64,000 bases of DNA from Candidatus Melainabacteria bacterium 17Bon1m (GTDB lineage Bacteria > Cyanobacteriota > Vampirovibrionia > Obscuribacterales > Obscuribacteraceae): positions 1 through 64,000 of the forward strand of contig JAVLKG010000012.1 of assembly GCA_032128875.1 (NCBI GenBank), in the 5' to 3' direction. Positions 2,917-29,344 of this stretch are shown here, one piece after another (positions within the stretch are counted from its first letter, which is position 1; each line of letters starts with the position of its first letter). The notes beneath the pieces are model-generated. The model was not told the origin of the DNA and searched no databases. It saw only the letters and a list, made by a program, of their open reading frames with translations. Both the position numbers and the translations under genes were made by a program.

Positions 2917-5900
2917 TTATTCAGGTATGCCAGGAACCCATTGAATGGGTGCTTTGACATTCCCATTGTCGAAGTTTTCCAGGAATCTGTGTATTTGTGT
3001 GTCCTGAATTGTTGGTTCTGGCGGCGTCGGTTCGGCATAAGTGGGTGTTTTAAACGCAGAACCTGTTTCACCTGGATCGTTGACCCAGGCCCAGCCCTTA
3101 TCTTCTGGCAGCCCTGGCCTAAACGGGTCGACAGGATCGTCGAACAGACCATGTGCCGGATCGGAATCCGCGAAAGGGTCCTGCGGAATCTGCCCATTAC
3201 CGTCGGAAAACTGGTCCGATAAAGGTGATGAACCCGAGTCGCTAAATGGATCCGCTGGAGCTATCTTGGACCCTTGGTCACTTGCGAGACCGAGTGTGTC
3301 AACAAAGTTCACAGGCTGGTTTCGCACGTACCTATACAGGTTCAGTCCATCAGCGTAGCCGATGACGTCGGGCTGCAGGAAGCGGCCGATGACAGGCGAG
3401 TAGTAGCGCGCCTTGTAGTTGTACAAGCCGGATTCGGCGTCGTAGCGCTGACCGGTGTAGCCGAAGCTTGTGCCGGAGAGCGCGGCTGATTCGCCGTACG
3501 GACCGTACTCGTAGCGCTGAGTGACAGCACCACTGTTGTTGGTGCGAGCGATGATCGAGCCGAGTCGGTCGCGGTGGAAGAAAGTCTTCGTTCCGCCGGA
3601 TGATACCTCGACGATCGGCTCATCGAGCCCGGTTGCGTAGACAAAGCGAGTGTTGAGAGTACCGGCGGTACCGTCGTACTCGGCGATGCGCTGCAAGCCA
3701 TTGTAGATGAAGCGGGTCTTGGTGCCGCCGACGTTCTTCTGCGACTGACGGTCCATCGGGTCGTAGAGATAGCTGGCGCTCACGCCGCTTTTCACTGCGC
3801 TGATGAAACGGTTGAGCACGTCGTAACCAAAGGTCCAGACTCCGTCGCCGGTCAAGCAACCGTTGTTATTGTAGGTGTAGGAAACACCGCCAACTGTCGG
3901 ATACTGGTTGAGGTCGTTCGCCGCGGCATAAGTGACGGTGCCGGCGGAAGCCGGGTGCCACACAAACTGATCGTCAGAGACGTTCTGGCTGGTCAGCTGA
4001 TGCGCGTCGTTGAAGCCGTAGGCGAAGTTAGCCGATGAGCCGACAAAGCTGTGTGCCAAGCCGGTCATGTCGTTTGTCAGCGAGAATTCGTATTCGCTCG
4101 AAGTACCGTTGGCGAATTCGACGTTCGCGCGCCGCGAGAGGATGTCGTAAGAAATCGTCGCTTCAGGCGTCGCCGAGCCGTTGAGCCTGATGTCGGTGAG
4201 ACGGTTGAGCTCGTCATAGACGCGCTCGACATAGTAGCTGTCCGGATAGGTCAGCTTGGTGACGTTGCCGTTGGCGTCAAGCTGCATGGTCACCTGCTTG
4301 CCGTCCGGGTATTCTTCCTTGAAGTAGCGACCGGCGCTGTCAAAGAAGTACTGGAAGGCGCCGCTGCCTGGGTCGCCACCGACGGTCGGCGTGCTGACGT
4401 CGGTCCTGCGACCGGCGAGGTCGTAGCCGTAGGTAATGGTCGGCATGCCCTGCGGCGTACGGGTCTCGAGGCGGTTGAGCACGTCGAAGGTGTTGGTGAC
4501 GGTGTCGCCGTTGCGTGTCGTGAAGACGAGCAAGTTGTCGTTGTCGTCGTACGACGTGTTTTCCTCGAAGGTCGTGTCCGGATAGATCGTCTGAGCAAGC
4601 CGGTCGAAGCCGTCGTAAGTGTACTCGGTCGTGTTGCTATTGGCGTCCGTAAGTTCGTGCAGCTTGCCGTTGTCGGTGTAGGTTCGGGTTTCGGCAAGAT
4701 TGTTCGACCAGTCGGTGACCGTCTCCAGCATTGCGCGAGCATCGTAGGTGAAGGTCGTTGTGCGGCTTTCCGGATCTTCTACCGACTGCAGCTTGCGCCG
4801 CTGGTTGTAGAAATAGTTGGTGGTGTTGCCCAGCGCATCAGACATGCTGGTGCGGTCGCCGGATACGTTGTACGAGAAGTTGGCCTTTTGCCAAATCGGG
4901 ACGCCGGGAGCGAGACGACGCGTTTCTACCAAACGGTTGTTTTTGTCGTACTCAAACTGAGTGATGAACTCGAACGGCTCGGGCGCGATGGTTTCCACAA
5001 CATGCCGCGACGCGTCGAAAGTCTGCTCGCCGCGGTTGCCGCGCGGATCTGTCACAGCCACAACGTTGCCGACCTTGTCGTATTCAAACGAAGTCGTCAG
5101 GTTGAGGTGCGGGCTTGTGCCAAAGTCGCGGACGACGGACAGCAGAGCTTCAGTGTCAGTGTCGTAGTTCCACTTTGTCACGATGCCGGTTTCATCGGTC
5201 ATCGTTGCCATCTGACCGCGGGCGTTGTAGGTAAACGAAACCTGCGGAGTGATACCGCCGATGGTGGGTCGCTGAATGTTCAACAGGTCGCCGGTCAGCG
5301 AGTCGTAAGTGTTGGTCGTGACGTTGCCTTCGCCGTCTTCAGCTGTTTCGACCTTATTCCAGTCGAGATCGTAGGTGAAGGTGTTGACGATGTCGGAAAG
5401 ACCGGAGCCAGGCTTCGCGATCTTCGTCAGCGTCAGCAGGTTGCTGTTTTCGTCGTAGGTCATCTCGAACGAATTGCCTTCCGGCATCGTCCGTTTGGTT
5501 TCGCGCCTAAGCGAATCGTACTCCCGGACTGTTTCGTTGCCGAGCTGGTCGACCATCAAGGTCGGCTGTCCATGCCGGTTGAAATAGGCGACAGTAGCGT
5601 TGGTCAGCGGGTCGACTTCTTCGCTGCGTGAGCCAGCGAAATAGTACGTCCACTGGTTGCTCTCACCGTCGGTTTGAGTCATGACGCGCCCGAGGCTGTC
5701 GTAGGCGTTGGTGACGATCTGAGAGGTCGGATTTTCCGGAAGGAAAATCTTTTCCAGGCGGCTGCTGCCGTCGTATTCGTAGGTAGTCTCGCGGCCCATC
5801 TCGTCGCGGCACGAGATCAGGTTGCCGGTCGAGTCATAGGTAAAGCCGATGTCGCGACCGGAGTTGTCGAAGACCTGGGTCAGCTTGCCGTTGCTGTCGT

Positions 5901-13370: not shown

Positions 13371-13676
13371 ATGAGCACATCGATTTTCTCGGGCAATTCC
13401 CCGATTCAAGTTTCAGAACCGAACCCCGTTTCGCCAGCCAGCTCTAAATTCAAGTTCTCCGATCACGAATTAATCGAGGCATTAATTTCCCTAGCCGACA
13501 TGCTCGATGCTGCGAGTGATGAGCAGCCAGTAGTTGAAGAAAGCCAGGAAACAAGCCTTGCAACGAATGACTCTTCGTCGATTGAGAAATTTTCCTTCTT
13601 ATCAGGTTGGGACCGATTGATGACGAGATTTAGAGATAACTGCAGCAATCGGAAAACGTACAGCATTTGCTTTTGA
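13371..13676 (+). CDS. Hypothetical protein
   Basis: Starts 6 nt after the upstream stop. Confidence 0.55.
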   Translation: MSTSIFSGNSPIQVSEPNPVSPASSKFKFSDHELIEALISLADMLDAASDEQPVVEESQETSLATNDSSSIEKFSFLSGWDRLMTRFRDNCSNRKTYSICF

Positions 13677-13726
13677 TTGAGAATGATTTTGGAGATTTAC
13701 CCCAGGTTAAAAAAGGACAGTTATTA

Positions 13727-14008
13727 ATGACGAACAGTAGCTTTTCGAATGGTATCGGACACATGTTTGCACCGCAGAATGGTGGCGTTGAACTTGAACC
13801 TAAGAGCTATTCTTTTTCTCTCGAGAAAGAAGCAACTTTTCGTCTGGAAGGTTTGACGGTAAACATTGATGCAAATGGTGACATCTGGGGTGCTAGATAT
13901 GACACAGGTGAAGCGCTTCGCCATAACTCGAAGTACACAATGGCAAAGGGCCTGAATAGCACTCTTTGGTTGGGTGACAAGAAAGGTATGTGGCATCCAC
14001 TAGATTAG
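13727..14008 (+). CDS. Hypothetical protein
   Basis: AAGGA RBS before the ATG at 13727. Confidence 0.6.
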   Translation: MTNSSFSNGIGHMFAPQNGGVELEPKSYSFSLEKEATFRLEGLTVNIDANGDIWGARYDTGEALRHNSKYTMAKGLNSTLWLGDKKGMWHPLD

Positions 14009-14022
14009 AAGCGAGTAGAAAA

Positions 14023-14265
14023 ATGGATCTTAATTCGATTTGGATTGATGGCGCCTACATTGCATTTGTTGTGATTGGTGCCTGCATATTCACTGGTCTT
14101 CAGTGTGGTATCACGGCTAGTTACGTTCATCGACTTGGACGCAAAGTTGGACCAGATTACTGGGGAAGCGTTTATGGTCGACCCGATGAGAATTCTTGCG
14201 AGGCAACTATTTCGCTTCATCCTCCTGCGCGAGAGATGCAGAGCGCTTATGGACGCAAAGGTTAG
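14023..14265 (+). CDS. Small membrane protein
   Basis: One hydrophobic segment; operon-like spacing. Confidence 0.55.
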   Translation: MDLNSIWIDGAYIAFVVIGACIFTGLQCGITASYVHRLGRKVGPDYWGSVYGRPDENSCEATISLHPPAREMQSAYGRKG

Positions 14266-14272
14266 GTGAAAC

Positions 14273-14488
14273 ATGATTGAAGTGTTCTTTATTTTGTTGG
14301 TTATGATTTTTGCCTTTGGACAGGGGCATATGGCGTTCGTGAATGGAATTCTTTGGTTTCTCGATGAACAAGATGGTGTTGAGATGAAGTGGAATTTCGA
14401 GACGTGCTTGGCTGCGATGGTTGTTCCGCTTGGTTTGATAATTGCTTCAGTTGAGCTGTATTTCTTGTTTCGACCTATCTATATGTAG
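14273..14488 (+). CDS. Small 2-TM membrane protein
   Basis: AGGTG RBS; two hydrophobic segments. Confidence 0.6.
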   Translation: MIEVFFILLVMIFAFGQGHMAFVNGILWFLDEQDGVEMKWNFETCLAAMVVPLGLIIASVELYFLFRPIYM

Positions 14489-15142
14489 TTTGAAAAGTTT
14501 GGAGAGTCACTGAACGAAGGTTCAGTGGAAAAGAGGCTGAAAGACAGAGTTGGGAAACCGATTCTGTTTTTTGGTTTTCAGTGATGTGAAAAGTTTGTTG
14601 ACAGGAGCTGTTCTGTTAACGCTGTGGCTCCTTTCGTGCGCCTTTCGCGCGGGCGGCATTAATTCCGCGTCTACAGTAGGTTTGCGCTAATGGCGCCAGC
14701 GAAGTTTGTTGTATTTGTTGGTGAAAACTCAGTATTCATGCAAGTTGACAGAAAGTTATGAGCCCAGAAAGGATCCCTTTGGATTTGGGAAACCGCGATA
14801 CTCTGGCGTATTGAACGTTTTCGTGTCTCTTGTAGACAGCGCAAGTTTTGGGGTTGCATTCGTGTGCTCGCTAGGACCACTATGGGCTGACTGTCTCTTC
14901 CTCATTTTTATTCGACTCGCAGCACTGCAAAACCAATCACATTTACTAAATTCGAACCACTTAAGCCACGCAAATGACGAGCAATGAAACTCGCTTTAGA
15001 ATTTGGTCCTTTGTAAGTCAGGTGCAAGCATTTGCACATCTTCGCGAGGCTTTGGCTGCGGGTTTTGAAGAGACAGTACAACAGAATAGTCATGTCAGCT
15101 ATCAGGTTGTTGTATCAACCTGTTCACAAGGAAGAGAAAACA

Positions 15143-15244
15143 ATGGCCACTGTTTTGATGATTGCAGTTTTGCTTCTCGGCGGAGTGAAGCTCTCCATTT
15201 TGCTTGGAGGACTCATCGTCGAGCTTAGCCGTATGCGTGGATAG
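15143..15244 (+). CDS. 33-aa hydrophobic peptide
   Basis: AAGGAAGAG RBS; MATVLMIAVLLLGGVKLSILLGGLIVELSRMRG. Confidence 0.45.
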   Translation: MATVLMIAVLLLGGVKLSILLGGLIVELSRMRG

Positions 15245-15300
15245 TTTCGCGCACGCGCACATCGTCAGCGATGCTGAATAGCATTTGCTGAAAGTTTTTC

Positions 15301-16059
15301 GTGACAAGAACAAGCAACCACCCAGCAAAACACCAGGAGATAGGATTCAAATTGACTGCTTCGACCAATTACAGGAATCAGTTGTGCGCGCTGCTCGTGT
15401 CTTGTTTCTCCAACATTCTCGAATCTTCTCGATTCGATGACAGGCAATGGAGGAAACTGCAGGAGGGTATTTCGCGGCATGGGTTGTTAACCACGACCGT
15501 GAGTATTCCTCGACGCTCGCGCCTCCCTCAGATTGATGAAGCTCGTCTGGAAACAGACCGTAAGTATCGGCGGCAAATTGCGCGACATCTCTTGAAGCCT
15601 CAGGGACCTGATTTCCAGCAGGTCGTTGTGCCTCTCGAGCGAGTGAGTCTTTCTGACCCTACGTACTTGAAAGAGATGTCTGAACTTCTCGCCGAGCGTT
15701 GGACGGATCGATTGTTGAGCGACCGACCGGATGTTGTCGCTCGACTCGTCCTTCTGCATTCAACGCCGGAAACTCTTGCAGAAAGTCTGGAGCGTTTGTT
15801 CCGCTATCAGGCGACCTCCCGCGATGCCTCTGCGCGAATGATGGCTCGGTTCGCACAAGAGGAGATCGATCGTAGCGAAGAAGTGCAGGCTGTGTTTGCC
15901 GAACTCGATGTCGCGCTCGACGAGGTTGAGCAGCGGGCTTCGAGCGAGTTCGACGAAATCGGGAAACGCATGGTTTCCGACGTCAGCGATGCGCTCGCAT
16001 GCATCCAGGCAAGCGCGGATGCGAAGTTCGATGCTCTCCAGCAGAGGTTTCGTGGTTAA
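15301..16059 (+). CDS. Hypothetical protein with coiled-coil C-terminus
   Basis: 252-aa ORF; start uncertain. Confidence 0.65.
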   Translation: MTRTSNHPAKHQEIGFKLTASTNYRNQLCALLVSCFSNILESSRFDDRQWRKLQEGISRHGLLTTTVSIPRRSRLPQIDEARLETDRKYRRQIARHLLKPQGPDFQQVVVPLERVSLSDPTYLKEMSELLAERWTDRLLSDRPDVVARLVLLHSTPETLAESLERLFRYQATSRDASARMMARFAQEEIDRSEEVQAVFAELDVALDEVEQRASSEFDEIGKRMVSDVSDALACIQASADAKFDALQQRFRG

Positions 16060-16146
16060 TTGATGCACGGCGCAGGGAGAGAGATGCAATCTGTGTTTCT
16101 CTCCCTGCGTTTCAATTTCCTGCTCTGTTGAAACTGGTCCAGTGAT

Positions 16147-16230
16147 GTAAGGTCGACGCATGGCGTCGACCTGTTCGTGTAAGGGCGCATTACAAGCGCC
16201 TTTCGCGTGGGCGGCATTAATGCCGCCCCT
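16147..16230. repeat. REP-like palindrome cluster
   Basis: GTA-AGGTCGACGC-atg-GCGTCGACCT and GGGCGGCATTAATGCCGCCC; partial copy near 14638-14668. Confidence 0.65.
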
Positions 16231-16435
16231 CCTTCGCCTCTTTGTACTACACCTTGTCGGAGGGCGAGAGAAAACGAAAATTGAGAGAGGTGAACGCAAA
16301 GTATTAGCATGCACCTCTCTCAATCAACCTCCTTTCGCGGGCAAAACATAAGTATGTAAATGAAAGCAGCTAGATACTTATGTTCAACCGTGTGTCAGCA
16401 GCGCGCCGGCTTGAGTCCTGACTGGCATGCCGTTT

Positions 16436-16633
16436 TTACTTGTTGGTGACGTTTGAAGCCTTTTGAATAGGTGTGCACATATCCTTGAGAGTTCGCTTCG
16501 CTTTGATCGCGCATGAGCCACAATCTGTGCCAGTTTTTAACACTCTGGTCATTTTGCGCCAGTTGCAACCATGTGCTTTTGCGAAGTGCTTGATCTGCTC
16601 CTCCGTCACTGCATGGCAAATGCAGACATACAT
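16436..16633 (-). CDS. bfd: Bacterioferritin-associated ferredoxin-like [2Fe-2S] protein
   Basis: MYVCICHAVTEEQI...TGTDCGSC. Confidence 0.85.
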   Translation of the reverse strand: MYVCICHAVTEEQIKHFAKAHGCNWRKMTRVLKTGTDCGSCAIKAKRTLKDMCTPIQKASNVTNK

Positions 16634-16709
16634 TGGCTGCCCTTCTTTGCTGTCGATGTTGCCAAACACTTCAACCACTATTTGAAGAAGCGTTTGGCAT
16701 CAGCGACCT

Positions 16710-16988
16710 TTAGCGGAGCGAGAGAACGATCTCGTTGAAGAGCTCGTCGACTCTGCTCGTTTCCATTGTTTTGATCTCATCCACGGTCAGAGGCTTCGAC
16801 TCCTCCAAATTTCGCAACCGCAGTTTGACGTCCTCGAGCTTGCTCGTTTCCGCTTTGATCTGCGCTTTGAGCTCGTTTTCCCGTGGGATGTCGTGCCCGG
16901 ACAGCACCGCGAACAACTCAAATTCGAGATCTTCAAGCTGCTCGACGATTGCCGCTTGTTCTGCAAGCAGCTCTGCTCGCTCGCTCAT
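16710..16988 (-). CDS. Hypothetical coiled-coil protein
   Basis: GAAAGG RBS; MSERAELLAEQ... Confidence 0.65.
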   Translation of the reverse strand: MSERAELLAEQAAIVEQLEDLEFELFAVLSGHDIPRENELKAQIKAETSKLEDVKLRLRNLEESKPLTVDEIKTMETSRVDELFNEIVLSLR

Positions 16989-17013
16989 CAGACCATTCCT
17001 TTCGTAAGTAATG

Positions 17014-17406
17014 CTACTTGTTGGAGACCCGCGAGATGACCACGCCGGTGAGCGCAACCAAGACGCCGAGGACGACGTTGCCCATCAGTAGCAGGGCGAA
17101 GCCGAGCACGAAGAGGCTGATCGCGTTGGCGTGCTTCATCTGCTTGTGGATGATGACCGCGCTGATTGCAGCTGCAGCCACAAGAGGCCAGGCTCCGAGC
17201 AGCAGCGCTGAGACGATTGCCACTGCGATGATCGCCGGGATGCGATGCCGGTGGTCCGAGCTGAACAGCGCTCCGATTGCGAAGACCGCGACTGCCGCCA
17301 ATGGCGACTGGATGAGTAGCGCGATGCCCAGCACGAGGAAGCCCAAGGTGAGCGGAGTGCTCGTGAAGGTGGTGTTGCCGAGTTTGAACGTCTTCGAGAA
17401 GCTCAT
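17014..17406 (-). CDS. Hypothetical multi-pass membrane protein
   Basis: Highly hydrophobic 130 aa; GGAAGG RBS. Confidence 0.75.
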   Translation of the reverse strand: MSFSKTFKLGNTTFTSTPLTLGFLVLGIALLIQSPLAAVAVFAIGALFSSDHRHRIPAIIAVAIVSALLLGAWPLVAAAAISAVIIHKQMKHANAISLFVLGFALLLMGNVVLGVLVALTGVVISRVSNK

Positions 17407-17512
17407 GGTGAAACCTTCCTAGATTGAATCTTGTTTGTTAGACCAGATTTTTTTGATCTTTTCCTTCTGGTCCTTCTAGTCCTTATTGAACAGATGCGCT
17501 TTACGTTCGGTC

Positions 17513-17596
17513 TCAACCGATGATGAAGCCGAGCATTAGCAGCGAAAGCAGGACGAAGACGGCGATGAAAACTGCCAATCTCCACGGTTTGACCAT
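17513..17596 (-). CDS. 27-aa single-TM peptide (not in the ORF track)
   Basis: GAAAGGA RBS; MVKPWRLAVFIAVFVLLSLLMLGFIIG. Confidence 0.6.
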   Translation of the reverse strand: MVKPWRLAVFIAVFVLLSLLMLGFIIG

Positions 17597-17607
17597 CGTG
17601 TTCCTTT

Positions 17608-18123
17608 CTACATCTTGGGTAACGCGCGCGTATCACAGGGATATTCGCGGTCTAGCAGTTTCCAGTTGTTTATGGTCACGTTGTGCTCTCCGCCGAACCT
17701 GTTGGACAGGTCGGATTTGAGCAACCCGATGATGCACTCTCTGGTGGCGTCGATCTCAATGTGCTGGTCGACCGTGACGACTACGTTTCCGCAGTGCCAC
17801 ATAGACGTTCCAACGGGATTCGAGTTATACGCCACGAAATATGTGATCTTCACGGTGCTGATGTTCTGGTTCAACTGTGACCTCTGCAAATGGTGTGCGC
17901 GCGCTTCTGCCGAGAAGTGAGCGTTGAGCAGAATCCAGTTGTTGATTACGACCGTGTGCGAGCCTCCGTACTTAGCGTTCAGCTTTGCTGCGATGTACTG
18001 CGTGACCTCGTTGCGCATGTCTGTCTGCTCGATCGGCAGTTCGCAGTTGACCTCGATGTTGTCGAAGTTCCACGCACCATCGCCGAGGCGATAGGTGAAT
18101 GCAACAAAGTAAGTGTGAAGCAT
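17608..18123 (-). CDS. Hypothetical protein made of two homologous ~63-aa domains
   Basis: TYFVA...GGxHxVxINNWxLL occurs twice. Confidence 0.8.
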   Translation of the reverse strand: MLHTYFVAFTYRLGDGAWNFDNIEVNCELPIEQTDMRNEVTQYIAAKLNAKYGGSHTVVINNWILLNAHFSAEARAHHLQRSQLNQNISTVKITYFVAYNSNPVGTSMWHCGNVVVTVDQHIEIDATRECIIGLLKSDLSNRFGGEHNVTINNWKLLDREYPCDTRALPKM

Positions 18124-18215
18124 TCCGTCATCAACTCATTTCTCATTCAGCGTTCGCTCAGCGATCGTTCTTGCTCAGCGATCCGTTTTCACTTTGCGGA
18201 AGCAGAGATGCTCTG

Positions 18216-18725
18216 CTAGAACAGCTCGACGACTGGTGTTTCCTTCGGCATGATCACGTTTGTGAGCCTGACGAATTCGTTGGCATCGAGCTTCCACTGC
18301 AGCTGCTCGTTGTGACGAGTCAGCTCAGCAATGGTGTAGGTCGCTTCGACGAACTCCAATTTGATACCAGCGCTTTCTGCGGCTGCGAAAAGTTCGTCAT
18401 CAAACGACTTGTGTACGTGAAGCGGCACACTGAGCGCGTGCGAGACGACGAGCGCGTGGAGAAGAACCTTGTCGTAGTCTTTCGTCCAGTACTCCCAGCC
18501 GGTGGTCCCCTCCCAGGTAAACTGGTTGAAGATCATGTTGATGAGCTGGTTGCGCCCGTTGCCGAGCTTCTTGTTGGCGAGCACCACGGCACGGTCGACG
18601 CGGCTGCGCTCAGAGTCGTAGTCGAGAGGCTTCATCCATGATTGAAAGCCCTTGTCGTGTGCAAGATCCCTGGCGAGGAGACTGATCTGCTTGTCACCTC
18701 CGGGAAACTCCAGTGAGAGAAACAC
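18216..18725 (-). CDS. Hypothetical protein
   Basis: AGGAG RBS; 169 aa. Confidence 0.7.
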   Translation of the reverse strand: MFLSLEFPGGDKQISLLARDLAHDKGFQSWMKPLDYDSERSRVDRAVVLANKKLGNGRNQLINMIFNQFTWEGTTGWEYWTKDYDKVLLHALVVSHALSVPLHVHKSFDDELFAAAESAGIKLEFVEATYTIAELTRHNEQLQWKLDANEFVRLTNVIMPKETPVVELF

Positions 18726-18751
18726 AATTACTCCTAGTTTGTCGATTTGAC

Positions 18752-19225
18752 TCAGTTTGCCTGAGCCGGATTGTCGCTTTCCTCTGTGTCGGCGGTGGGC
18801 AGGAAACGTCTGAGCATGACGCTCACCCTTTCCACAATCTGCATCTGGGCAATCGCCTGTCGCATCGCGGCCGGGTCGGACAGCACCTTCGTTGCGACCG
18901 GTGTTTGCAGCGTCTGGACGCCTTGCATGAACACTGCGATCGGCAGAGCCGGATGCGCACCATGCTCGATGGCGTCGAAGTAGAGCTGCGCGTTCAGCCC
19001 GCCTCGCACGAGCGAGACGAAGATATTCACGTCGAGCCCGCTGGAGATGACAGAGCTGACCAACTGCTTGTGCTGAGCGGGCGTTAGCGGAAGCAGAACG
19101 TCGATGAGTGAGACGTAATCGATCTGCATGCGGCGCTGGAACCCGTGTGTGATGAGTTCGACTGCAGCGATCAACTCCGTCGCAGCACTCGCGGCGCGGT
19201 CATGGGCGATAGATTGGTGAGACAT
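18752..19225 (-). CDS. Hypothetical protein
   Basis: GAAAGG RBS before MSHQSIA. Confidence 0.7.
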   Translation of the reverse strand: MSHQSIAHDRAASAATELIAAVELITHGFQRRMQIDYVSLIDVLLPLTPAQHKQLVSSVISSGLDVNIFVSLVRGGLNAQLYFDAIEHGAHPALPIAVFMQGVQTLQTPVATKVLSDPAAMRQAIAQMQIVERVSVMLRRFLPTADTEESDNPAQAN

Positions 19226-19298
19226 TTCTTGGCCTTTCGATCTGTCGATTAGATGTTGGTTGTCTGTCAGGTTGCATGCAGATTTGTTCGACCGCCGG

Positions 19299-19532
19299 CT
19301 ATAAGCCTTCGCTGACGAGCTTGTCGAGCACGTTGTCTCGCTCTTCAAGCGCGATCTGCAAGGAAAGAGTTCGCAGATCTTTAATGACGGCGAGTTGCTG
19401 GTTGCACACCGCCGGGTCATTGGCGAAGTGTCGCTCGATTTCAGCAACCCAGCGCGTATTCTCCCTCTCAATCGATGCGACGCGAGTTTTGTACAGCTCT
19501 TGTGCAGCAACGACCTCTTTCGTGTTAATCAT
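19299..19532 (-). CDS. Hypothetical helical protein
   Basis: AGGA RBS before MINTKEV. Confidence 0.55.
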   Translation of the reverse strand: MINTKEVVAAQELYKTRVASIERENTRWVAEIERHFANDPAVCNQQLAVIKDLRTLSLQIALEERDNVLDKLVSEGL

Positions 19533-19558
19533 CTCATTCCTGTCTGTAGGGACTTGCG

Positions 19559-19759
19559 TCACATACCGCGGGCGATGTCGGAGCACTCTTCGAGAAGTGC
19601 GTTGAACTCCTCGGCAGGCAGCGACGAAAGGAATGCGGCTTCTGCCGGGGAAACGTTGGACAGCGCCGCGATGTTCTGCGTGCGATCGACCATCGTGGGT
19701 CCGCCGTTCTTGTTTTTGCTGCTGCTGCTGCGACCGGTGTTGGTGAGATTCTTGGACAT
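19559..19759 (-). CDS. Hypothetical protein
   Basis: GAAAGG RBS before MSKNLT. Confidence 0.55.
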   Translation of the reverse strand: MSKNLTNTGRSSSSKNKNGGPTMVDRTQNIAALSNVSPAEAAFLSSLPAEEFNALLEECSDIARGM

Positions 19760-20461
19760 GACATACCCTTTCCATTTGGATGGCGATATTACATTTGCTA
19801 CATCACGATGGGGAGCTTGTCGCGGCAGGAGCATCCACCGCCTAGCGTTTGTATAACGCGGCTCCCCAGGCTGAAGTCCGACAGTCGGTACTCAGTTTTT
19901 CTGTCAACTACATCCCGCAAAATATTGCAGTATGCGTGTTCAGAAACCGACTGTCCTACGATGCGCACTCCTCTGACCCCCTGGATTGGTGGGGAAGAAC
20001 GCACTTTCGCTTAGGACCATGTCCACAAGTGTCTGCTCATGGATGCGATTGCCAATCGCATTGGTGTTGCAGCTGACTGCCGGAGCCAGCCATAATTTGT
20101 TCGCACGATCGAGAACGACATTTCTCGCTCGCACGCCACAGCAAACGTAGCAGCGTTTCTGTAGCTCTTTAGTGCAATCAAATTGGTGCGGACATGGCAA
20201 CTATCACAATGCATTTGCATCCCGAGATAGAAAGAAGATTTCTTCCTTCCTGACCAGACTTTCGTTTGATTCAAACAAAAGCACTGAGTTGCCCGCTTTT
20301 TGATAAGGGACCGCACCGTCCCTTCCTTCGATTCGTTTGTCCTGCCTGCAAGCCGGTGAATCGAAGATTTCCACCAGTGTCACGTCATGACTTCCGGATC
20401 AGAGCGAAAGTTATGCACGCGTTGTTTCAAGCATCCTAGGGGTGATCAGTATGCTTGATGT

Positions 20462-22627
20462 TTAATGAACCTTCGTGTGATCCGACCAGAGACCCATCTC
20501 AGCTCCCTTGCGAAAGAGAGCTTTTGTCTGAGGAGACATTTGTGGGTCCAGCTCGGTCAAACGCCGGTAGAGACCGCTCACGCTGGACGTGAGTTTTTTT
20601 GTCTCCAGTTGGGCATTCATCAATTTCCCGGTGTTACGAGCGATCATCGGATGTTTGCCAAAGACGCTCCCACCGTTGTGCTCGAGGTCGAACGCATGAT
20701 CCGCGAAGACTGTTGCGTTGACCTGCCCTTTGAGATAGCCTTCGGCAGAGCGCGCGATGACCGCCCACTTCTTTCCACCAACGCCGCCGACTCCCACGTT
20801 TCCCCAGGCTTTCGCCTCGAAGACTGTGGCGATCAAATGCAAAAAACGTACATGCTTGTCGTGAGGCATCTCCTTCAATCGTTGGATGGAACGGCGACGG
20901 TGGCTGTCATACTCTTGCCGCAGAATGTCCAGCTCGTTACGGCACTCTGGTTGCAACTTTGCCAGATTGTGATTGCTAAAGCAGTATCCTGCTTCGCCGA
21001 TTACGGCGCAGATGAGATACATAGCCAATCTGTCTGCCGTGGCTTTGTGCACATCAGCCTTGAGCTGAGCAGCTTCGCTCTCCAATTTCGTTGCTGAGGA
21101 CGCTTTTGCCATCGTGTCGACCAGGTAGAAATCGTTGAGGAGCAACGATGCCGTAACGCGCTCGCTGAGCATCTCGAAGCGCAGTGCCGGCTGCTCGCCA
21201 GTGCTCTCAGCTTGCCACCACTTCAGAAAGAGGTTGACCTCTTTCTTGTCGAGTGCGCCCGTCTTTGTGAGCTCACCATCGATGATCAGCCCACTGCGCC
21301 CATCAACCGATACCACCTGCCCTTCTTGGACGTTAAGTGACCGGCATCCGACTACCGCAGGCTTGCCGAGACTTCGCGCAACTACTGCTGCGTGGCTGGT
21401 CGCTCCACCTGTGGCGGTGATAATTGCAGCGGCTGCAAGCATGCCGTTCAGGTCGTCCGGAGAAGTCTCAGGACGCGCCAGAATGACCTTTTCTCCGAGC
21501 TTTGCCGCCGCAACTGCTTGCGCTGAGGTGACCACGACTCGCCCGACTGCCGCACCAGGAGATGCTGCCAGTCCGCTCGCCAACACCTTTCCTTCCTCGT
21601 CTGCTTGAGCAAGCACCTCGTCGGAAAACCCCGTCTCGCTCAACGCCTTCAGCTGATTGGCGCTGACGCGAGCGAGGGCCTCCTTCTTGGTCCAGCGCTT
21701 TTCCCAAACGAAGTTGGTTGCGATGGTAGCTGCCGCCTCAGGTGTGCGTTTTGCATTGCGCACCTGGAGGATGTGCAGTTTGCCGGATTCGACCGTAAAC
21801 TCAATATCCACTACGTCATTGCGGTGTGTTTCGAGCTTTCGAGCGATTGTCTCCAGCTGCCTATACACGTCGACATTCCACGCTTTCAGTGCCTCGATTG
21901 GCAAGGGCGTGCGCGAGCCATCGACAATGTCTTCGCCTTGAGCGTTGACCAGAAATTCGCCGAAAAGGCGATTCTCGCCGGTCGCAACATCACGGCTGAA
22001 GACGACTCCGGTGCCGGAGCGTTTGTCGAGATTGCCGTATACCATCGCTTGAATGGTCACCGCCGTGCCCAACCCGTTCGAGATGCTGCATGCCCTGCGA
22101 TATGCGACAGCACGGGGTGTATTCCACGACTCGAGGACTGCCGTTACGGCGAGTTCGAGTTGCAGCCACGGATCCTCAGGCACATCGCTTTTGACCACGT
22201 CGCGGAACATCGACAGAAAGCGTCGATAACAATCTTCAGCGAAGTGCGAACCCTGACGAGAAGCCAGCCCTTCTACAATCTCACGGTTGAGACCGAGATT
22301 GAGAATCGTATCCATCATACCGGGCATAGAAACTTCGGCTCCGGAGCGAACCGAGACGAGGAGCGGATCTTCTGCAGAGCCGAACCGCTTACCAGTCGCC
22401 TGTTCGAGCTGCTGCATCTCACGACGGAGCTGCTGGCTGAGCCTCTTGGGGACACAGCCGTGCTGCGCGAAGGCGCGAGCTACAGAGGTGGTGATGGTGA
22501 AACCGGCCGGAACCGGAAGTCCCAGTTGAGCAAGTTCGCTCAGTCCGAAACCTTTGCCACCACGTGCGGTGATTGTAGCAGCGCCCTTATCCTCGAAGAG
22601 GAAGGCCAGTTGCCTGCTGCGTCCCAT
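20462..22627 (-). CDS. PPDK-like protein: ATP-grasp plus phospho-His domain plus unrecognised C-terminal domain
   Basis: GGKG, LPVPAGFTITT, LLVSVRSGA, SMPGMMDTILNLG, NAQGEDIVDG, DIEFTVE, LQVR, GGATSHAAVVAR; no PEP/pyruvate barrel motifs. Confidence 0.9.
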   Translation of the reverse strand: MGRSRQLAFLFEDKGAATITARGGKGFGLSELAQLGLPVPAGFTITTSVARAFAQHGCVPKRLSQQLRREMQQLEQATGKRFGSAEDPLLVSVRSGAEVSMPGMMDTILNLGLNREIVEGLASRQGSHFAEDCYRRFLSMFRDVVKSDVPEDPWLQLELAVTAVLESWNTPRAVAYRRACSISNGLGTAVTIQAMVYGNLDKRSGTGVVFSRDVATGENRLFGEFLVNAQGEDIVDGSRTPLPIEALKAWNVDVYRQLETIARKLETHRNDVVDIEFTVESGKLHILQVRNAKRTPEAAATIATNFVWEKRWTKKEALARVSANQLKALSETGFSDEVLAQADEEGKVLASGLAASPGAAVGRVVVTSAQAVAAAKLGEKVILARPETSPDDLNGMLAAAAIITATGGATSHAAVVARSLGKPAVVGCRSLNVQEGQVVSVDGRSGLIIDGELTKTGALDKKEVNLFLKWWQAESTGEQPALRFEMLSERVTASLLLNDFYLVDTMAKASSATKLESEAAQLKADVHKATADRLAMYLICAVIGEAGYCFSNHNLAKLQPECRNELDILRQEYDSHRRRSIQRLKEMPHDKHVRFLHLIATVFEAKAWGNVGVGGVGGKKWAVIARSAEGYLKGQVNATVFADHAFDLEHNGGSVFGKHPMIARNTGKLMNAQLETKKLTSSVSGLYRRLTELDPQMSPQTKALFRKGAEMGLWSDHTKVH

Positions 22628-22736: not shown

Positions 22737-23588
22737 CTACGGAATCGCAATGCGGTGATACTCCTCCGCGATGCCATCATGACCCCAGCGCTTTGCGGCG
22801 CGGAGCGCTCGTGCTGTGGCTTTCAGCTGGATGTCCGCTCCGTTCCACTGACTCTCGTGCGCGTGCAGCGCATTGCAAACCTTCCCCCAGTGGTTGTCGA
22901 CCTCCAGGAAGCAGTTTGCCTTGTATGGCTCGACGAGGTCATCGCCGAACCAAAGCACTTCTCGCACCTGATGTCCTGGGAGCGGTTCTCTCCAGAACTT
23001 CCACCAGGGGACTTTCTCTTCCTGCCGCGCCTCCGGGTAAATCGCATCCCAGAGAGCAAGCGCGCCATATCGGTGATCTGGGTGTTCCGGACCGAAGGTG
23101 GTGGAGGTGAGCAAGCCCGGACTGAAGGAAACGACGGCATATGGGCGCAGCATCCGAAGCATGGTCGCCATCTCCTTCTGCAAACGTCCACTGCGGTATG
23201 CCTGTGCAAGCCCGTTGTCCTTCCAGCGCCGAAAGACCACGTGCGATACCCCAACAGCGCATGCCGCCATCCACTGCTCTTGCTCACGTACTCGAGCGTT
23301 ACCGTTCTTCTCGCCGCTTGTAACGACGACATAAACTACCTCGACACCGGCAGCGGTGAGCGAGGCAGCCAGACCGGCGGCATGGAAGTCGAGGTCGTCA
23401 GGGTGAAACCCCACGAAGACGACGCAGCCCTGCCCAACGTAGTCCTTGGGGTCGAGCTTTCCCGGATGTTCTCGCGTCGATGCGTTGTCGGCGCGCTCTT
23501 CCTTGTGTTCTTCGCCGCCTACCTCGACTTTTTTCACGACAGACAGGTGCCGGCGGTCTCTCCGCGCCGACTTGTCGCTATCATTCAT
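22737..23588 (-). CDS. PIG-L/LmbE-family deacetylase
   Basis: FHPDD, VTSGE, RVREQ, HPDH, AHESQ. Confidence 0.9.
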   Translation of the reverse strand: MNDSDKSARRDRRHLSVVKKVEVGGEEHKEERADNASTREHPGKLDPKDYVGQGCVVFVGFHPDDLDFHAAGLAASLTAAGVEVVYVVVTSGEKNGNARVREQEQWMAACAVGVSHVVFRRWKDNGLAQAYRSGRLQKEMATMLRMLRPYAVVSFSPGLLTSTTFGPEHPDHRYGALALWDAIYPEARQEEKVPWWKFWREPLPGHQVREVLWFGDDLVEPYKANCFLEVDNHWGKVCNALHAHESQWNGADIQLKATARALRAAKRWGHDGIAEEYHRIAIP

Positions 23589-23596
23589 TAGAGTTC

Positions 23597-24493
23597 CTAA
23601 CTCTCTGTAGATTCGGGCTTGGCATAATTCTGGCGGGTAATGCCGGTTTCGAGCGACGAGAAAAACTCCCTCACCGCCAGATACCAGTCATCCCGCGCCT
23701 GCACTCCTAGATGCGTCGCACCTGGAAGTACAACCAGTCTAGTATCGGGTCCCGCGACTTCGAAGAGCTTATCGGCATGCTTCTTATCCACGACTCTGTC
23801 GTGGTCACCATGCAGAATCAGCAAGGGCGGGTGCTTTTCCCTGATGCTATCGGCAGTAGAGAGTTGCAACTTGGGAAACATGCAGCCAGGGTAGACTCGC
23901 AGCGGTGGAATCATGTCCTTGATTTGGACTTCCAACGACGAGAACCCGGACTGCAGAATGAGTCCAGAAGCCTTTCTCTTGGACGATACATAGGCAGCAA
24001 CCGAAGCCCCAAGACTCTCTCCGTAGAGAACTATCTGGTCTGCGGAATAGCCGAGTGCGATGACAGCATCATAGGCTGCAAGCCCATCTTCGAGTAATGA
24101 ATCTACCGTTGCGCGTCCATTTGCCTCACCGAAGCCTCTGTAATCGAAGATGAATACAGAAACTCCTGCCCGCAGCAGTGCTTTTGCACGAATCATGTTT
24201 TTGGCATGATTGCTTCGTCGCCCGCCGAAATACACGACCAGCTTGTGACTGTCACGACGTGTGCAGAGGTGTCCATACAGTGTTGATACTCCGGCGGAGG
24301 CGAATGAGACTGGCTGTACGTGTACGTCTGCCGTATCGACACTCGTGTCCAAATTTGTGCTTCTGCAACGTGGCATGAGAATGGACGTGTAAATGTAATG
24401 CGCTACCCGTGGCGACAAGCCCAACCAGAGGAGGGCCGCGGTGAGAATAGCCGCGCAAGTAGCTCGTAAGTGAGCAGACATAATCTCATCCAC
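23597..24493 (-). CDS. Alpha/beta hydrolase with N-terminal anchor (ABHD13/BEM46-like)
   Basis: FDYRGFG, YGESLGA, LHGDHDRVV, GATH. Confidence 0.9.
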   Translation of the reverse strand: MDEIMSAHLRATCAAILTAALLWLGLSPRVAHYIYTSILMPRCRSTNLDTSVDTADVHVQPVSFASAGVSTLYGHLCTRRDSHKLVVYFGGRRSNHAKNMIRAKALLRAGVSVFIFDYRGFGEANGRATVDSLLEDGLAAYDAVIALGYSADQIVLYGESLGASVAAYVSSKRKASGLILQSGFSSLEVQIKDMIPPLRVYPGCMFPKLQLSTADSIREKHPPLLILHGDHDRVVDKKHADKLFEVAGPDTRLVVLPGATHLGVQARDDWYLAVREFFSSLETGITRQNYAKPESTES

Positions 24494-26609: not shown

Positions 26610-26638
26610 ACCGGACAGATTTGTGAATTTTTTGGTTA
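26610..26638 (-). promoter_or_regulatory. Conserved 29-bp upstream motif, copy 3
   Basis: TAACCAAA-AAA-TTCACAAA-TCT-GTCCGGT. Confidence 0.5.
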
Positions 26639-29344
26639 TGGTTTTGGCTGGTTTTCGTGAAGACAATGAATGACTGCAGGCGCCCCTATGAGGCCTCCTA
26701 AAAGGCTTATAGGAAGACGGTAGCGGGGTGCAAGAAGACCTAATCCGCTCAATCCGCTTGTTATACCAATATCTCGCCTGACGGTAGGTAATGCGCCGCT
26801 CGCAGGGTCTCTAATTAATGCGTTGATGTCGTTTATCTGATCGATGTATCCTCGCGTGATCGGATTTCTGCCTAGCAGCTCATTCATCAACTGTTTTTCG
26901 TTTCCAATTTTGACATTACCGTTGATGTCTACCTGCATTCCGATATTTACCGTCGATGGCGCGAGCATCAACCACCGAAGCGGCGCTGGTACTGGATTGT
27001 CCAAATTGAAGTTGTAGGTGTGACGCCCATTGCTATCTTCTTTGTCTGTCAGGCTGTGCAGATTTGATCTCCTATCTAGCCCTAAAGCTTGAATGTTGAG
27101 TGAAACTCCTTCAATTTCGCTGAGTTTTGGATTGCCTTTCTCACTGTCGAGATCGAATTTGACATTGTTCAGGTTTAGAGATTCGATAGTTCCGATACCA
27201 AGATTCTTGTTGATTGGTAAAATGCTTGGTTGTGACGTTTTCAGCCTTATCTGATTTCCAGTCTTCGATAACTCGGTAGTATTATCGATTAAATCAGTTA
27301 CTGGATTTTGAAGTTTGCTCCCCAGTTTATCTTCTGCATTTTTTAGCATTTTGGAAGGGTAAATTGCACCATTTGGAAGCGACGCCGCATGCGCGTAAAG
27401 TTTCGCGACGTCCTCAGCAATGCCGTCTGCACCGCGCTTTTGAATGTTATCCAAAACCCTTTGAAGAGGGTTTGTTCTATTGTCCAATAGTTCTGTCGGA
27501 TCATTGGATGGTGCTACATTGCCGCTCGACTTGGGATGCTCTTTGAGAAAGTCCCAGATTTTGTCATATACATCAAACTTTTCGTCTGGCGTGTGTCCAC
27601 TGTTTTCTAAAGTGATTTCCTTTACGGCTGTACCGTTGCTGGTGTTTCTATAGAGCTTCTCGGTGACATCACCTTCTTGTTTTATTGTGCCGTTTTCAGT
27701 GATGCCATTTTGTCTTTTCCAAAAGTCGGTCGCGAACTGAGGTGTATTGAAAGTCGGGATGCCTAGCTCAGATAAAATTGGTGGCACGCCGTGCAGCCCC
27801 TTGATGGGTATCACTTCGTCATCTGTGCCATGTGTGCTTATTACAGATACTGGGAATTTGGGCTTTGGCTCCTTGCCGCTCATCGCAGAGCTTACAATGC
27901 CAACTGCAGCTAGTTTGTCAGACATCTCGCTGGCAGCCAGGTAAGTCATCATTCCACCACTTGAATGACCGATCATGTAAATGCGTTTTTGATCAACTTC
28001 AAGTTGCGACTGGCTGCGGTCGATTACGTCGCGGAGAAACTTGAGATCATTGGCGCGGGCCCCAGGGGGTACCAAACCATTTGCAGCGTCCCAAGCGCTT
28101 AAGTCTTTTCTGCCCAACCACTTCGTTGCATCCGGGTAGACTACTGCAAATCCTTCCTTGTCAGCTCTTTCGTTCATGTGGGTGCGCTGCGCGAATTCTT
28201 TGCCGTCGCCCCCACGTCCATGAAGCATCACCAGCAACGGAATTGGTTTTGACCCGTCGTATCCAGGTGGAACATGCAACGTATAGTGACGATCTTTGCC
28301 ATCTACAGCGATTGTTTGTTCGTAGTCGCCCGGCGTTTTTATCTTCTCGAGATTTGCATTATTAGCAGTATTGTCCGAGCTTGCCTTATCGCTGTTCTTC
28401 GTGGAGTCAGCAGGCAGAACCGATTGATTTTCGATGCGATTGTTGCTTGCGGAGGGAGGTGAAGAATCTGTTTGAGAATGGCTTGTCGTTTGGCTTGTCG
28501 CTTGCTTCTTCACCTCTTCGAACATCGGTTTGATAACGTCATGAATCCATTTTGGATTTTCTTCTGCAAATTTTGAAACGTCTCCTAGGTCATTAAACGC
28601 ATCAGAGAAGAGCAATCCTGGCAACGTATCGCCTGCACTCTCGGCCGCGGCGTGGAAAATACTGCTTGGTTGAGGAAGAGATAGTCCGTTCTTGTTCGAT
28701 TCTATGGGGACGGCGATGCTCGCCGGCATCGATAAAATGTCTCTGGCGGCGTCAGGCAATGGATTCTCGATGTGGGCAATGAGAGCCGGCTGATCGTTTT
28801 TTCCCGACGCAATATCTATTTGCGTCATTCGAATCGTTTTGTCGGATCCAAAAGCTGAAACTGTCAAAGACAGTCCTTCTAACCCGCTGATGCTCTTGCC
28901 GTCTGCTGTTATGTCAAAGGCGATGTTTTTTGCTACATTCAAACTGTCAGCCGATGCGTTTCCTTCAAGGATATCTCGCTCGATTGGAATTTCGCTATTC
29001 TCTCGCCGTTCAATATCAAAGTGATTTCCTGTGCGCACAACACTCACAGAGTTCTGAAGCAACGGCTCCAGCGTACCGAATGTATTGCTTCCTTTAGCTG
29101 CATCTATCAAAGCTTTCGCGTCAACCTTCTGGTTTTCCGGTAGAGCTTTCAGATACTGAGCTAGCTGCGTGAAGGGGCTAGCTTGGATGTCTTGCTTTGG
29201 ACTTTGACTCTGTTTGTAGTCCTTCATCACCTCTACAAAGCTAAGTGATTCCGGAGGTTTGTCCAGCGTTGCGAATTCTGCGACGCGTGGAGCCAAGCGG
29301 TCTGCAAGGGCGAAATCGGTAAACGAAGAGGTTGTGTTGCTCAT
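26636..29344 (-). CDS. LpqC/PHB-depolymerase-like esterase flanked by a duplicated unknown domain
   Basis: LHVPPGYD, MLHGRGG, GFAVVYPD, GHSSGG, HGTDD, SGH. Confidence 0.85.
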   Translation of the reverse strand: MSNTTSSFTDFALADRLAPRVAEFATLDKPPESLSFVEVMKDYKQSQSPKQDIQASPFTQLAQYLKALPENQKVDAKALIDAAKGSNTFGTLEPLLQNSVSVVRTGNHFDIERRENSEIPIERDILEGNASADSLNVAKNIAFDITADGKSISGLEGLSLTVSAFGSDKTIRMTQIDIASGKNDQPALIAHIENPLPDAARDILSMPASIAVPIESNKNGLSLPQPSSIFHAAAESAGDTLPGLLFSDAFNDLGDVSKFAEENPKWIHDVIKPMFEEVKKQATSQTTSHSQTDSSPPSASNNRIENQSVLPADSTKNSDKASSDNTANNANLEKIKTPGDYEQTIAVDGKDRHYTLHVPPGYDGSKPIPLLVMLHGRGGDGKEFAQRTHMNERADKEGFAVVYPDATKWLGRKDLSAWDAANGLVPPGARANDLKFLRDVIDRSQSQLEVDQKRIYMIGHSSGGMMTYLAASEMSDKLAAVGIVSSAMSGKEPKPKFPVSVISTHGTDDEVIPIKGLHGVPPILSELGIPTFNTPQFATDFWKRQNGITENGTIKQEGDVTEKLYRNTSNGTAVKEITLENSGHTPDEKFDVYDKIWDFLKEHPKSSGNVAPSNDPTELLDNRTNPLQRVLDNIQKRGADGIAEDVAKLYAHAASLPNGAIYPSKMLKNAEDKLGSKLQNPVTDLIDNTTELSKTGNQIRLKTSQPSILPINKNLGIGTIESLNLNNVKFDLDSEKGNPKLSEIEGVSLNIQALGLDRRSNLHSLTDKEDSNGRHTYNFNLDNPVPAPLRWLMLAPSTVNIGMQVDINGNVKIGNEKQLMNELLGRNPITRGYIDQINDINALIRDPASGALPTVRRDIGITSGLSGLGLLAPRYRLPISLLGGLIGAPAVIHCLHENQPKP

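Follow-up and report, generated by a model that had tools for sequence, protein, structure and literature searches.

The gene described here raises the question of what a pyruvate, phosphate dikinase (PPDK)-like protein could phosphorylate when its pyruvate-binding barrel has been replaced by a domain of another kind. The swivelling phospho-histidine carrier of the PPDK superfamily is a textbook device that is reused with varied acceptor domains, and its acceptors include pyruvate, rifampin, phenols, and glucans. The gene in question, here called dikinase-X (protein P0001), lies on the first 64,000 nucleotides of contig JAVLKG010000012.1 from Candidatus Melainabacteria bacterium 17Bon1m, a stretch referred to below as the window, and its product ends in a domain that we call X. 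An initial annotation, made from the letters of the window alone, had assigned the PPDK ATP-grasp and swivel domains to residues ~1-455, had seen no phosphoenolpyruvate (PEP)/pyruvate barrel in the last ~260 residues, and had proposed phosphotransfer to a new substrate. Dikinase-X falls in a PPDK-superfamily branch that has yet to be characterised and, by analogy with known dikinases, is probably an ATP-driven phospho-histidine relay in which X binds the acceptor of the phosphate.

A Pfam scan of dikinase-X recovered PPDK_N (PF01326, 6e-45) and, at amino acids (aa) 379-446, PEP-utilizers (PF00391, 3.2e-24), which bears out the two N-terminal domains of the initial annotation, whereas PEP-utilizers_C gave no Pfam match even at E<=1. 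The swivel domain contains the pattern GG-x-T-S-H-A-A; because GGATSHAA begins at aa 407, the catalytic histidine is H412, the residue named initially. Together with K25, R94, E276, Q288, and R290, H412 was invariant in 57 aligned sequences. Solved PPDKs matched dikinase-X with a sequence E-value of 5e-117, the alignment ending near aa 436-472. This alignment fell into two blocks (dikinase-X 8-152 with PPDK 5-150, and dikinase-X 132-436 with PPDK 178-479), indicating that the helical insert of the N-domain lacks some 30-45 residues. The shortened insert sits between DVV (aa 143) and PEDP (aa 150), exactly where a shorter N-domain had been suspected. Since most family members (760-800 aa) retain the insert, its deletion is a trait of the 718-724-aa subclade.

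The N-module scored 513.6 over aa 14-463 against the short-PPDK family NF004531, above the curated threshold of 456, and dikinase-X scored 527.5 against the true-PPDK family TIGR01828, below the curated threshold of 843.45. The 17Bon1m genome (7.55 Mb, 35 contigs) has a separate gene, on a different contig, for a true 934-aa PPDK; dikinase-X is thus a paralogue with a different C-terminus. The full-length AlphaFold2 (AF2) model had a predicted local distance difference test score (pLDDT) of 91.0 and a predicted TM-score (pTM) of 0.69. It matched PPDK 1kbl at E 3.6e-44 with a query TM-score (TMq) of 0.63, about the 455/721 fraction of the protein. In a quick tree of the N-module, computed without VadK, true PPDKs and phage dikinases grouped together (Shimodaira-Hasegawa-like approximate likelihood ratio test, 99) and the dikinase-X backbone was unresolved. 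Judged by its sequence, the ATP-grasp domain is of the PPDK type and not of the PEP-synthase type.

X occupies the place of the second substrate domain of PPDK, directly after the swivel domain. Its AF2 model, built from a 46-sequence alignment, was all-helical, with twelve helices plus three two-residue bridges near the D643-K658 motif (mean pLDDT 90.6, pTM 0.87). A diverged PEP-utilizers_C barrel was rejected at an hhalign probability of 0.09% against 14 PPDK barrels from relatives. A PEP/pyruvate triosephosphate isomerase (TIM) barrel was likewise rejected, as no Pfam match to it was found in the 46 members at E<=10 and the model contained helices only. The absence of the barrel from the last ~260 residues was thereby confirmed, and the domain does not fold as PEP-utilizers_C. 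A Fic/Doc (Fido) domain was also considered. The Fic/Doc motif is HxFx(D/E)GNGRxxR, which the X sequence HAFDLEHNGG does not match; the hhalign probability against 24 Fic domains from relatives was 0.3%, and Pfam gave no Fic match.

Library searches assigned X to no described family. Among 46 X domains searched against Pfam at E<=10 no family recurred, the best being 5/46 on one unrelated family, and the X profile gave only a chance match to PDB sequences (E 1.6). The ESM Atlas returned nothing for X and nothing for c2, a neighbouring protein described below, and Pfam detected no carbohydrate-binding module in dikinase-X. When the X model was compared with 350,542 PDB chains by Foldseek, no chain matched at E<=0.001 (best E 0.8, TMq 0.16); VIA-align against 48,161 representative chains gave none at Z>=8 (best Z 6.2 over 96 residues), and its rows for X were generic helical bundles, at the level of a common helix arrangement. 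Missing matches to a predicted model do not prove the fold of X new. Four unnamed proteins of 326-478 aa among the predicted viral structures of BFVD did match X (E 1e-5 to 1e-4, probability 1.00, TMq 0.52-0.62). A literature search, with subscription journals outside its coverage, brought up no publication about X or about the trio formed by the dikinase, the protein tyrosine phosphatase (PTP)-like protein, and c2.

X nevertheless has a large family. A word-based search with aa 456-721 retrieved 35 proteins; the swivel domain was present in every one, and PPDK_N was missing only from two shorter proteins of 442 and 449 aa. An exhaustive HMMER search of 1.84 billion representatives returned 393 homologues at E<=1e-3, 138 at E<=1e-10, and 39 at E<=1e-30. 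At least 400 residues preceded X in 123 of the 185 homologues examined, and every such protein that was scanned had PPDK_N and the swivel domain. Fewer than 100 residues flanked X on either side in 43/185; many of these come from short contigs and may be fragments.

In phages, the two halves of dikinase-X are separate genes. Among PHROGs, phrog_18609 ("kinase") was matched by the N-module at 1e-130, and phrog_20946, a family of unknown function, by aa 526-669 at 3.9e-10; two proteins of Vibrio phage 1.215.A are full-length members of these families. A tblastn search with the whole of dikinase-X detected the N-module in 55 phage records, 40 of which have Vibrio (33), Stenotrophomonas (4), Rhizobium (2), or Rhodobacter (1) as host. 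The other 15 (Listeria, Enterococcus, Bacillus, and "Bacteriophage sp."), with ~42% identity over aa 3-474 and many records of 4-12 kb, were presumed to be ordinary PPDK fragments. Standalone X was present in 40 phage records, and their hosts divided in the same way (33/4/2/1), so that the split homologues whose search had been recommended do exist. Among the matches listed, 22/22 dikinase-positive records of the four host genera also carried X.

The gene order was examined in four phage loci. A hidden Markov model (HMM) of 46 bacterial X domains matched a separate protein of 339-361 aa in all four, with E-values of 1e-26 (KarBoss), 3e-26 (1.215.A), 2e-22 (DLP_3), and 2e-22 (ValSw4_1) and an overall range of 1e-22 to 1e-27. 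In KarBoss, 1.215.A, and DLP_3, where the gene for a short dikinase is present, standalone X follows it at a distance of 1-2 kb; in ValSw4_1, X and a PTP-like gene lie near the start of the record. One or two PTP-like genes adjoined X in 4/4 loci. In 1.215.A, the order is dikinase (688 aa), 160-aa protein, PTP-like protein, X (346 aa), and 276-aa protein, the block being placed between the large terminase and the portal; its PTP-like protein scored 38.6 bits against Pfam Tc-R-P (cut-off 27). No c2 was found in the four loci at E<=1, BLASTP of X directly against two phage dikinases gave nothing, and the 200-240-aa tails of phage dikinases did not match the X HMM. In evolutionary terms X is a module of its own, joined to the dikinase in bacteria and standalone in phages.

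Some phage labels deserve comment. DLP3_141 of Stenotrophomonas phage DLP_3 (L002:10614-11390), annotated "thymidylate synthase", gave matches not to a thymidylate synthase but to the profile of the Cys-x5-Arg phosphatase (3.4e-16) and to Tc-R-P of Pfam (27.9 bits). phrog_17568, which carries the same label, matched a bacterial c1 phosphatase (3.9e-10; see below), and the label looks like a propagated misannotation. A different X architecture was seen in a large viral contig of IMG/VR (230 kb; L054:640-2736), where X spans aa 61-290 of a 698-aa protein and the ~400 aa beyond it are of unknown type, with no dikinase within the 10.5 kb examined.

Twenty columns of the 46-sequence X alignment were invariant, and all 20 are kept in the window protein. 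In domain numbering (add 455 for protein numbering), they include E8, W15, F45, Y46, Y82, E90, G162, G163, W166, D188, H195, G198, K203, and K222. The domain thus has homologues with conserved residues, and its C-terminal motifs, GGKKWAVIA beginning at aa 617 and FADHAFDLEHNGGSVFGK beginning at aa 641, are not due to chance, as they are fully or almost fully conserved in the 46 aligned domains. Phage and bacterial X both keep E545, G617-G618, W621, D643, H650, N651, G653, and K658, and also have in common an aromatic residue at 646 and L648. The initial annotation had singled out DHxxDxxHN as a candidate site. D643, H650, and N651 of this motif hold in bacteria and phages alike, whereas H644 and D647 are conserved in fused bacterial X only and are lost in the standalone phage proteins; the universal set in turn extends beyond the motif to E545, G617-G618, W621, and K658. 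An Arg-His pair follows E545 in most bacterial X and in all 5 aligned phage X, and is substituted in the subclade of the window.

In bacteria, a phosphatase-like gene is the usual neighbour of the fused form. A pattern scan of one genome per species yielded 44 loci, and one fused locus from IMG/VR brought the number to 45. Most of the 44 come from metagenome-assembled genomes of Obscuribacterales/Melainabacteria, several from Patescibacteria (Saccharibacteria, Magasanikbacteria, Moraniibacteriota, and Nomurabacteria), and a few from other groups. Clustering of neighbours identified two families, c1 and c2, directly downstream of dikinase-X on the same strand. c1 proteins (169-320 aa) contain C-x5-R in 19/19 members of the first clustering, within the motif C-x-x-[GS]-[HQ]-G-R-T-G and with P-D-F-G-G-V-P ahead of it; their Pfam matches were weak, to the dual-specificity phosphatase (DSP)-PTPase families Tc-R-P and PTP-SAK. 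c2 proteins (about 150-300 aa) matched no library searched. They have an N-terminal domain with an invariant G-T, three Arg, a Glu, and a Ser, and a C-terminal end with one to three repeats of P-G-x-N-x-A-S-R-W-x-L-x-T-L-R.

HMMs run on all open reading frames (ORFs) of at least 60 aa placed c1 within 4 kb on the same strand in 31/45 loci and c2 only in 9 more, so that 40/45 have at least one of the two; c2 was present in 34/45 overall and neither in 5/45 (L009, L010, L012, L014, and L039). These counts are approximate because the HMMs were trained on members from the loci being counted and the available sequence stops less than 1.7 kb from the gene in four of them. Fusions join the same partners: P0165 (935 aa) combines dikinase, X, and c1; L036:10805-11662 encodes c1 and c2 in a single frame; and L048:2461-3423 encodes a c2-like part and c1. 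Because c1 and c2 normally follow the gene, the dikinase-X family forms the kinase arm of a kinase/phosphatase module. When c1, c2, and X were aligned by hhalign with 21 other neighbour-gene clusters, no probability exceeded 40, and PADLOC gave no match for the dikinase, c1, c2, or six neighbours.

Parts of the module were also found in duplicate: L048 has a tandem dikinase-X pair, L052 has c1 twice, and L015, L027, and L043 each have c2 twice. In addition, three assemblies have two or three separate dikinase-X loci each. Long forms of 870-1030 aa (P0022, P0040, P0050, P0054, P0066, P0084, P0097, P0114, and others) bear 135-270-aa tails after X. By eye, HExxH, D-x-S-G-S-M (resembling the metal ion-dependent adhesion site of von Willebrand factor A domains), and Walker-A G-x-G-K-[ST] motifs recur in these tails, and that of P0097 gave a Pfam AAA match.

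From these data we infer a catalytic cycle modelled on PPDK, PEP synthase, rifampin phosphotransferase (RPH), and HpeHI. The ATP-grasp domain would use ATP to load His412 of the swivel domain, with release of AMP; the loaded swivel domain would then turn off the nucleotide site and deliver the phosphate to an acceptor held by X. The predicted acceptor site comprises E545, D643, H650, N651, and K658, with G617-G618 and W621. M. tuberculosis has a truncated PPDK, VadK, that is reported to phosphorylate its own His when given ATP and Mg (PMC13400623). Two-component small-molecule dikinases also exist; in RPH and the two-component phenol kinases, according to PMC12167813, the acceptor module is exchangeable and separable. 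Phosphotransfer by dikinase-X to a substrate new to the superfamily, as proposed initially, would follow the same logic.

The nature of the acceptor was considered from the same evidence. The presence of universal Glu, Asp, His, Asn, and Lys in a dedicated domain favours a hydroxyl or comparable group that is chemically demanding and not part of a protein, and a small molecule or glycan is our leading, still tentative, candidate. In the subclade of the window, the PIG-L deacetylase and esterase-type neighbours weakly point to an acetylated, sugar-like acceptor, or hint at some other small hydroxyl compound that is not a protein. The PTP/DSP partner and c2 make a protein target plausible, and we regard a protein acceptor as possible to a somewhat lesser degree. 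The helix-rich repeats of c2 leave room for a nucleic acid, which seems improbable.

The conserved phosphatase and c2 could also suit a different arrangement, in which dikinase-X is a VadK-like regulatory histidine kinase that autophosphorylates and transfers the phosphate directly to a protein partner, X serves only to dock or receive that partner (c2 in canonical loci, another protein in the window), and the Cys phosphatase resets the system. PTP/DSP-type partners often act on phosphoproteins, and c2, with its invariant Gly-Thr, three Arg, and Ser, is a conserved small protein present in three quarters of the loci (34/45). The N-module lies above the cut-off of the family that contains VadK, for which autophosphorylation and protein interaction are reported (PMC13400623). 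Yet the phages keep X and the phosphatase with no c2 detected at E<=1 in their four loci, the genome of the window is also without c2, and a fusion of c2 to the phosphatase, as in L036 and L048, would be odd for a substrate. In addition, the universal polar residues of this 260-aa domain appear to resemble a catalytic site more than a docking surface. We consider a VadK-like kinase unlikely, and it is the alternative to a phosphate relay that survives best.

The relay also has to be weighed against the locus of the window itself (Table 1), where several observations speak against it. Both c1 and c2 are missing from the locus in the window and in its nearest relatives, and the c1 and c2 profiles found no match in the whole genome, which is 93% complete; the window copy has lost both partners. 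The protein reads E-A-G-Y at E545, where Arg-His is usual, and this loss in the subclade could reflect changed specificity or relaxed function. The linkage to the PIG-L deacetylase and the hydrolase upstream is confined to one subclade of close relatives, and may therefore be inherited synteny and not a sign of function.

Table 1. Positions in the window of dikinase-X, its domains and conserved residues, and the two genes upstream
Feature	Position	Strand	Basis or remark
Dikinase-X, whole gene (P0001)	20462..22627	(-)	721 aa + stop
PPDK-type ATP-grasp nucleotide-binding domain and linker helices, aa 1-343	21599..22627	(-)	PPDK_N 6e-45
Phospho-histidine swivel domain, aa 344-455	21263..21598	(-)	Pfam PEP-utilizers aa 379-446
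His412 codon (in GGATSHAA), predicted phospho-carrier	21392..21394	(-)	Aligns with PPDK catalytic His region
X domain, aa 456-721, all-helical, predicted acceptor module	20465..21262	(-)	Homologues, AF2 model
E545 codon (E90 of the domain)	20993..20995	(-)	Invariant, bacterial and phage forms
GGKKW, aa 617-621	20765..20779	(-)	G617, G618, W621 invariant
D643-K658 (DHAFDLEHNGGSVFGK)	20654..20701	(-)	D643, H650, N651, G653, K658 universal
PIG-L/LmbE-family deacetylase, 109 bp upstream of dikinase-X	22737..23588	(-)	PF02585 2.9e-19
Alpha/beta hydrolase, GESLG nucleophile motif	23597..24493	(-)	Hydrolase_4 8e-19; 8 bp gap to deacetylase

The upstream deacetylase was BshB1-like (below cut-off) and looked cytoplasmic by eye, and the hydrolase has, also by eye, an N-terminal hydrophobic helix. 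The deacetylase cluster (c4) was found in L009, L010, L011, L013, and L014 and the hydrolase cluster (c3) in the window, L009, L011, L012, L013, and L014. The pair occurs in L009, L011, L013, and L014 and is partial in L010 and L012; L011 and L013 combine it with c1. The identity of X to that of the window is 90% in L009, 75% in L010, and about 50% in L012 and L014, and orthologues of 718-724 aa in other assemblies are 75-94% identical in X. X was present in 5/12 other genomes of the genus, in 2/12 in other genera of the family, and in 0/16 outside the family. Genes from ~17.6 to 23.6 kb have a G+C content at third codon positions (GC3) of 0.63-0.75, against 0.46-0.55 for the surrounding two-component and other genes. 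Dikinase-X is an accessory gene here and was probably transferred.

These observations raise the possibility that the window gene is in decay, left over from a three-gene module whose phosphatase and c2 have disappeared, and no longer serves a specific purpose. The absence of c1 and c2 from locus and genome, the lost Arg-His, the GC3-rich island, and the patchy distribution within the genus would all fit. Decay is very unlikely, however, since the ORF is full-length and without stops, 20/20 invariant X columns are retained together with the conserved ATP-grasp residues and the catalytic His, close orthologues of the same length persist in other assemblies, and the upstream gene pair is conserved in L009, L011, L013, and L014. 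Slightly less likely still is an X that is an independent enzyme or binding domain (a product reader or a nucleic-acid module) receiving no phosphate from His412, for although its fold offers no functional clue and the 698-aa IMG/VR protein has an N-terminal X with no dikinase in 10.5 kb, X stands exactly at the position of the second substrate domain of PPDK, 123/185 homologues carry at least 400 aa ahead of it (those scanned all with PPDK_N and swivel), and 22/22 dikinase-positive phage records of the four genera among the matches listed have it.

Other features of the window were noted in passing. A run of small ORFs with no family match occupies 13667-20316 and is common to the L009, L010, L011, and L013 loci; its members include c9 (18752-19510), c10 (17608-18123), c39 (16710-17057), c22 (15301-16059), c11, and c23. 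GC3 was 0.70-0.75 in the three ORFs of the run that were measured, and the run looks like the remainder of the same transferred island. At 2917-8526 (-) lies a gene for an RHS/YD-repeat protein of 1869 aa (RHS_repeat 2.9e-44, DUF6531) with a GC3 of 0.73, well above its neighbours; it is probably of the polymorphic-toxin type and of separate foreign origin. The 902-aa product of 26636-29344 (-) contains at aa 348-585 an esterase domain resembling extracellular short-chain polyhydroxyalkanoate depolymerases (NF050058 1.4e-39, below cut-off), and this gene is kept beside the locus in L009 and L012.

Returning to the phosphate relay, we compared dikinase-X with the known systems of its superfamily. 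It resembles PPDK (TIGR01828, EC 2.7.9.1; 1kbl, 1dik, and 9pzl) in its ATP-grasp domain, its swivel T-S-H, and the order of nucleotide, His, and third domains. It differs from PPDK in that the third domain is not a PEP/pyruvate TIM barrel, the N-domain insert is shortened, and the TIGR01828 cut-off is missed. Its N-module places it above the family cut-off with VadK and other Rv1127c-type short PPDKs (NF004531). VadK, reported to be without a pyruvate domain (PMC13400623), stops after the His domain, whereas dikinase-X continues into the 266-aa X and its family has a phosphatase and c2. With RPH, HpeHI, CreHI, and PpsAB it has in common an ATP-grasp and a swivel His combined with a non-barrel acceptor, and the existence of split forms (PMC12167813).

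The full-length model matched RPH 5hv1 with E 1.7e-10, through the common domains; the X model alone retrieved no RPH chain in Foldseek or among the VIA-align matches listed, which does not exclude a relationship. The order in RPH is ATP-grasp, acceptor, swivel, and that in dikinase-X is ATP-grasp, swivel, X; in the split forms, the swivel goes with the acceptor in HpeH but with the ATP-grasp in the phages. The phage pair phrog_18609 and phrog_20946 is encoded by two genes, and one or two PTP-like genes lie between these or follow them, in contrast to the window, where kinase and X form one polypeptide with no phosphatase nearby. Glucan, water dikinase (GWD) and the glucan phosphatases laforin and SEX4 pair a superfamily dikinase with a Cys-x5-Arg phosphatase on a non-protein polymer. 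This is an analogy of logic only for dikinase-X and c1: X has no counterpart in GWD, and the GWD/phosphatase pairing is not an operon. Differing from PPDK in the third domain, from VadK in having more than two domains, and from RPH in domain order, dikinase-X is best filed as a PPDK-type loader with a new acceptor module.

The family has consequences beyond this locus. Since the fold of X was not seen among solved structures, the family likely adds a new acceptor chemistry to the superfamily. The conserved phosphatase partner and the third, unknown protein make a defined, testable system. More tentatively, dikinase-X, the Cys-x5-Arg phosphatase, and c2 may constitute an unrecognised reversible phosphorylation system with a new-fold acceptor domain, common to Obscuribacterales/Melainabacteria, Patescibacteria, and 80-100-kb siphophages of Vibrio, Stenotrophomonas, Rhizobium, and Rhodobacter, which would modify a macromolecule or metabolite in phage-host or cell-cell conflict. 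The split module occurs in at least 40 sequenced phages, whose records label the dikinase PPDK. One paper (PMC12038007) likewise assigns the dikinase to carbon metabolism: it counts the gene, as PPDK, among the auxiliary metabolic genes and regards the PTP as a further, distinct one. If the conflict-system reading is true, this auxiliary metabolic gene would be misnamed and unrelated to pyruvate. The concentration of the family in Melainabacteria, Patescibacteria, and phages suggests a role in cell-cell or virus interactions and not in core metabolism.

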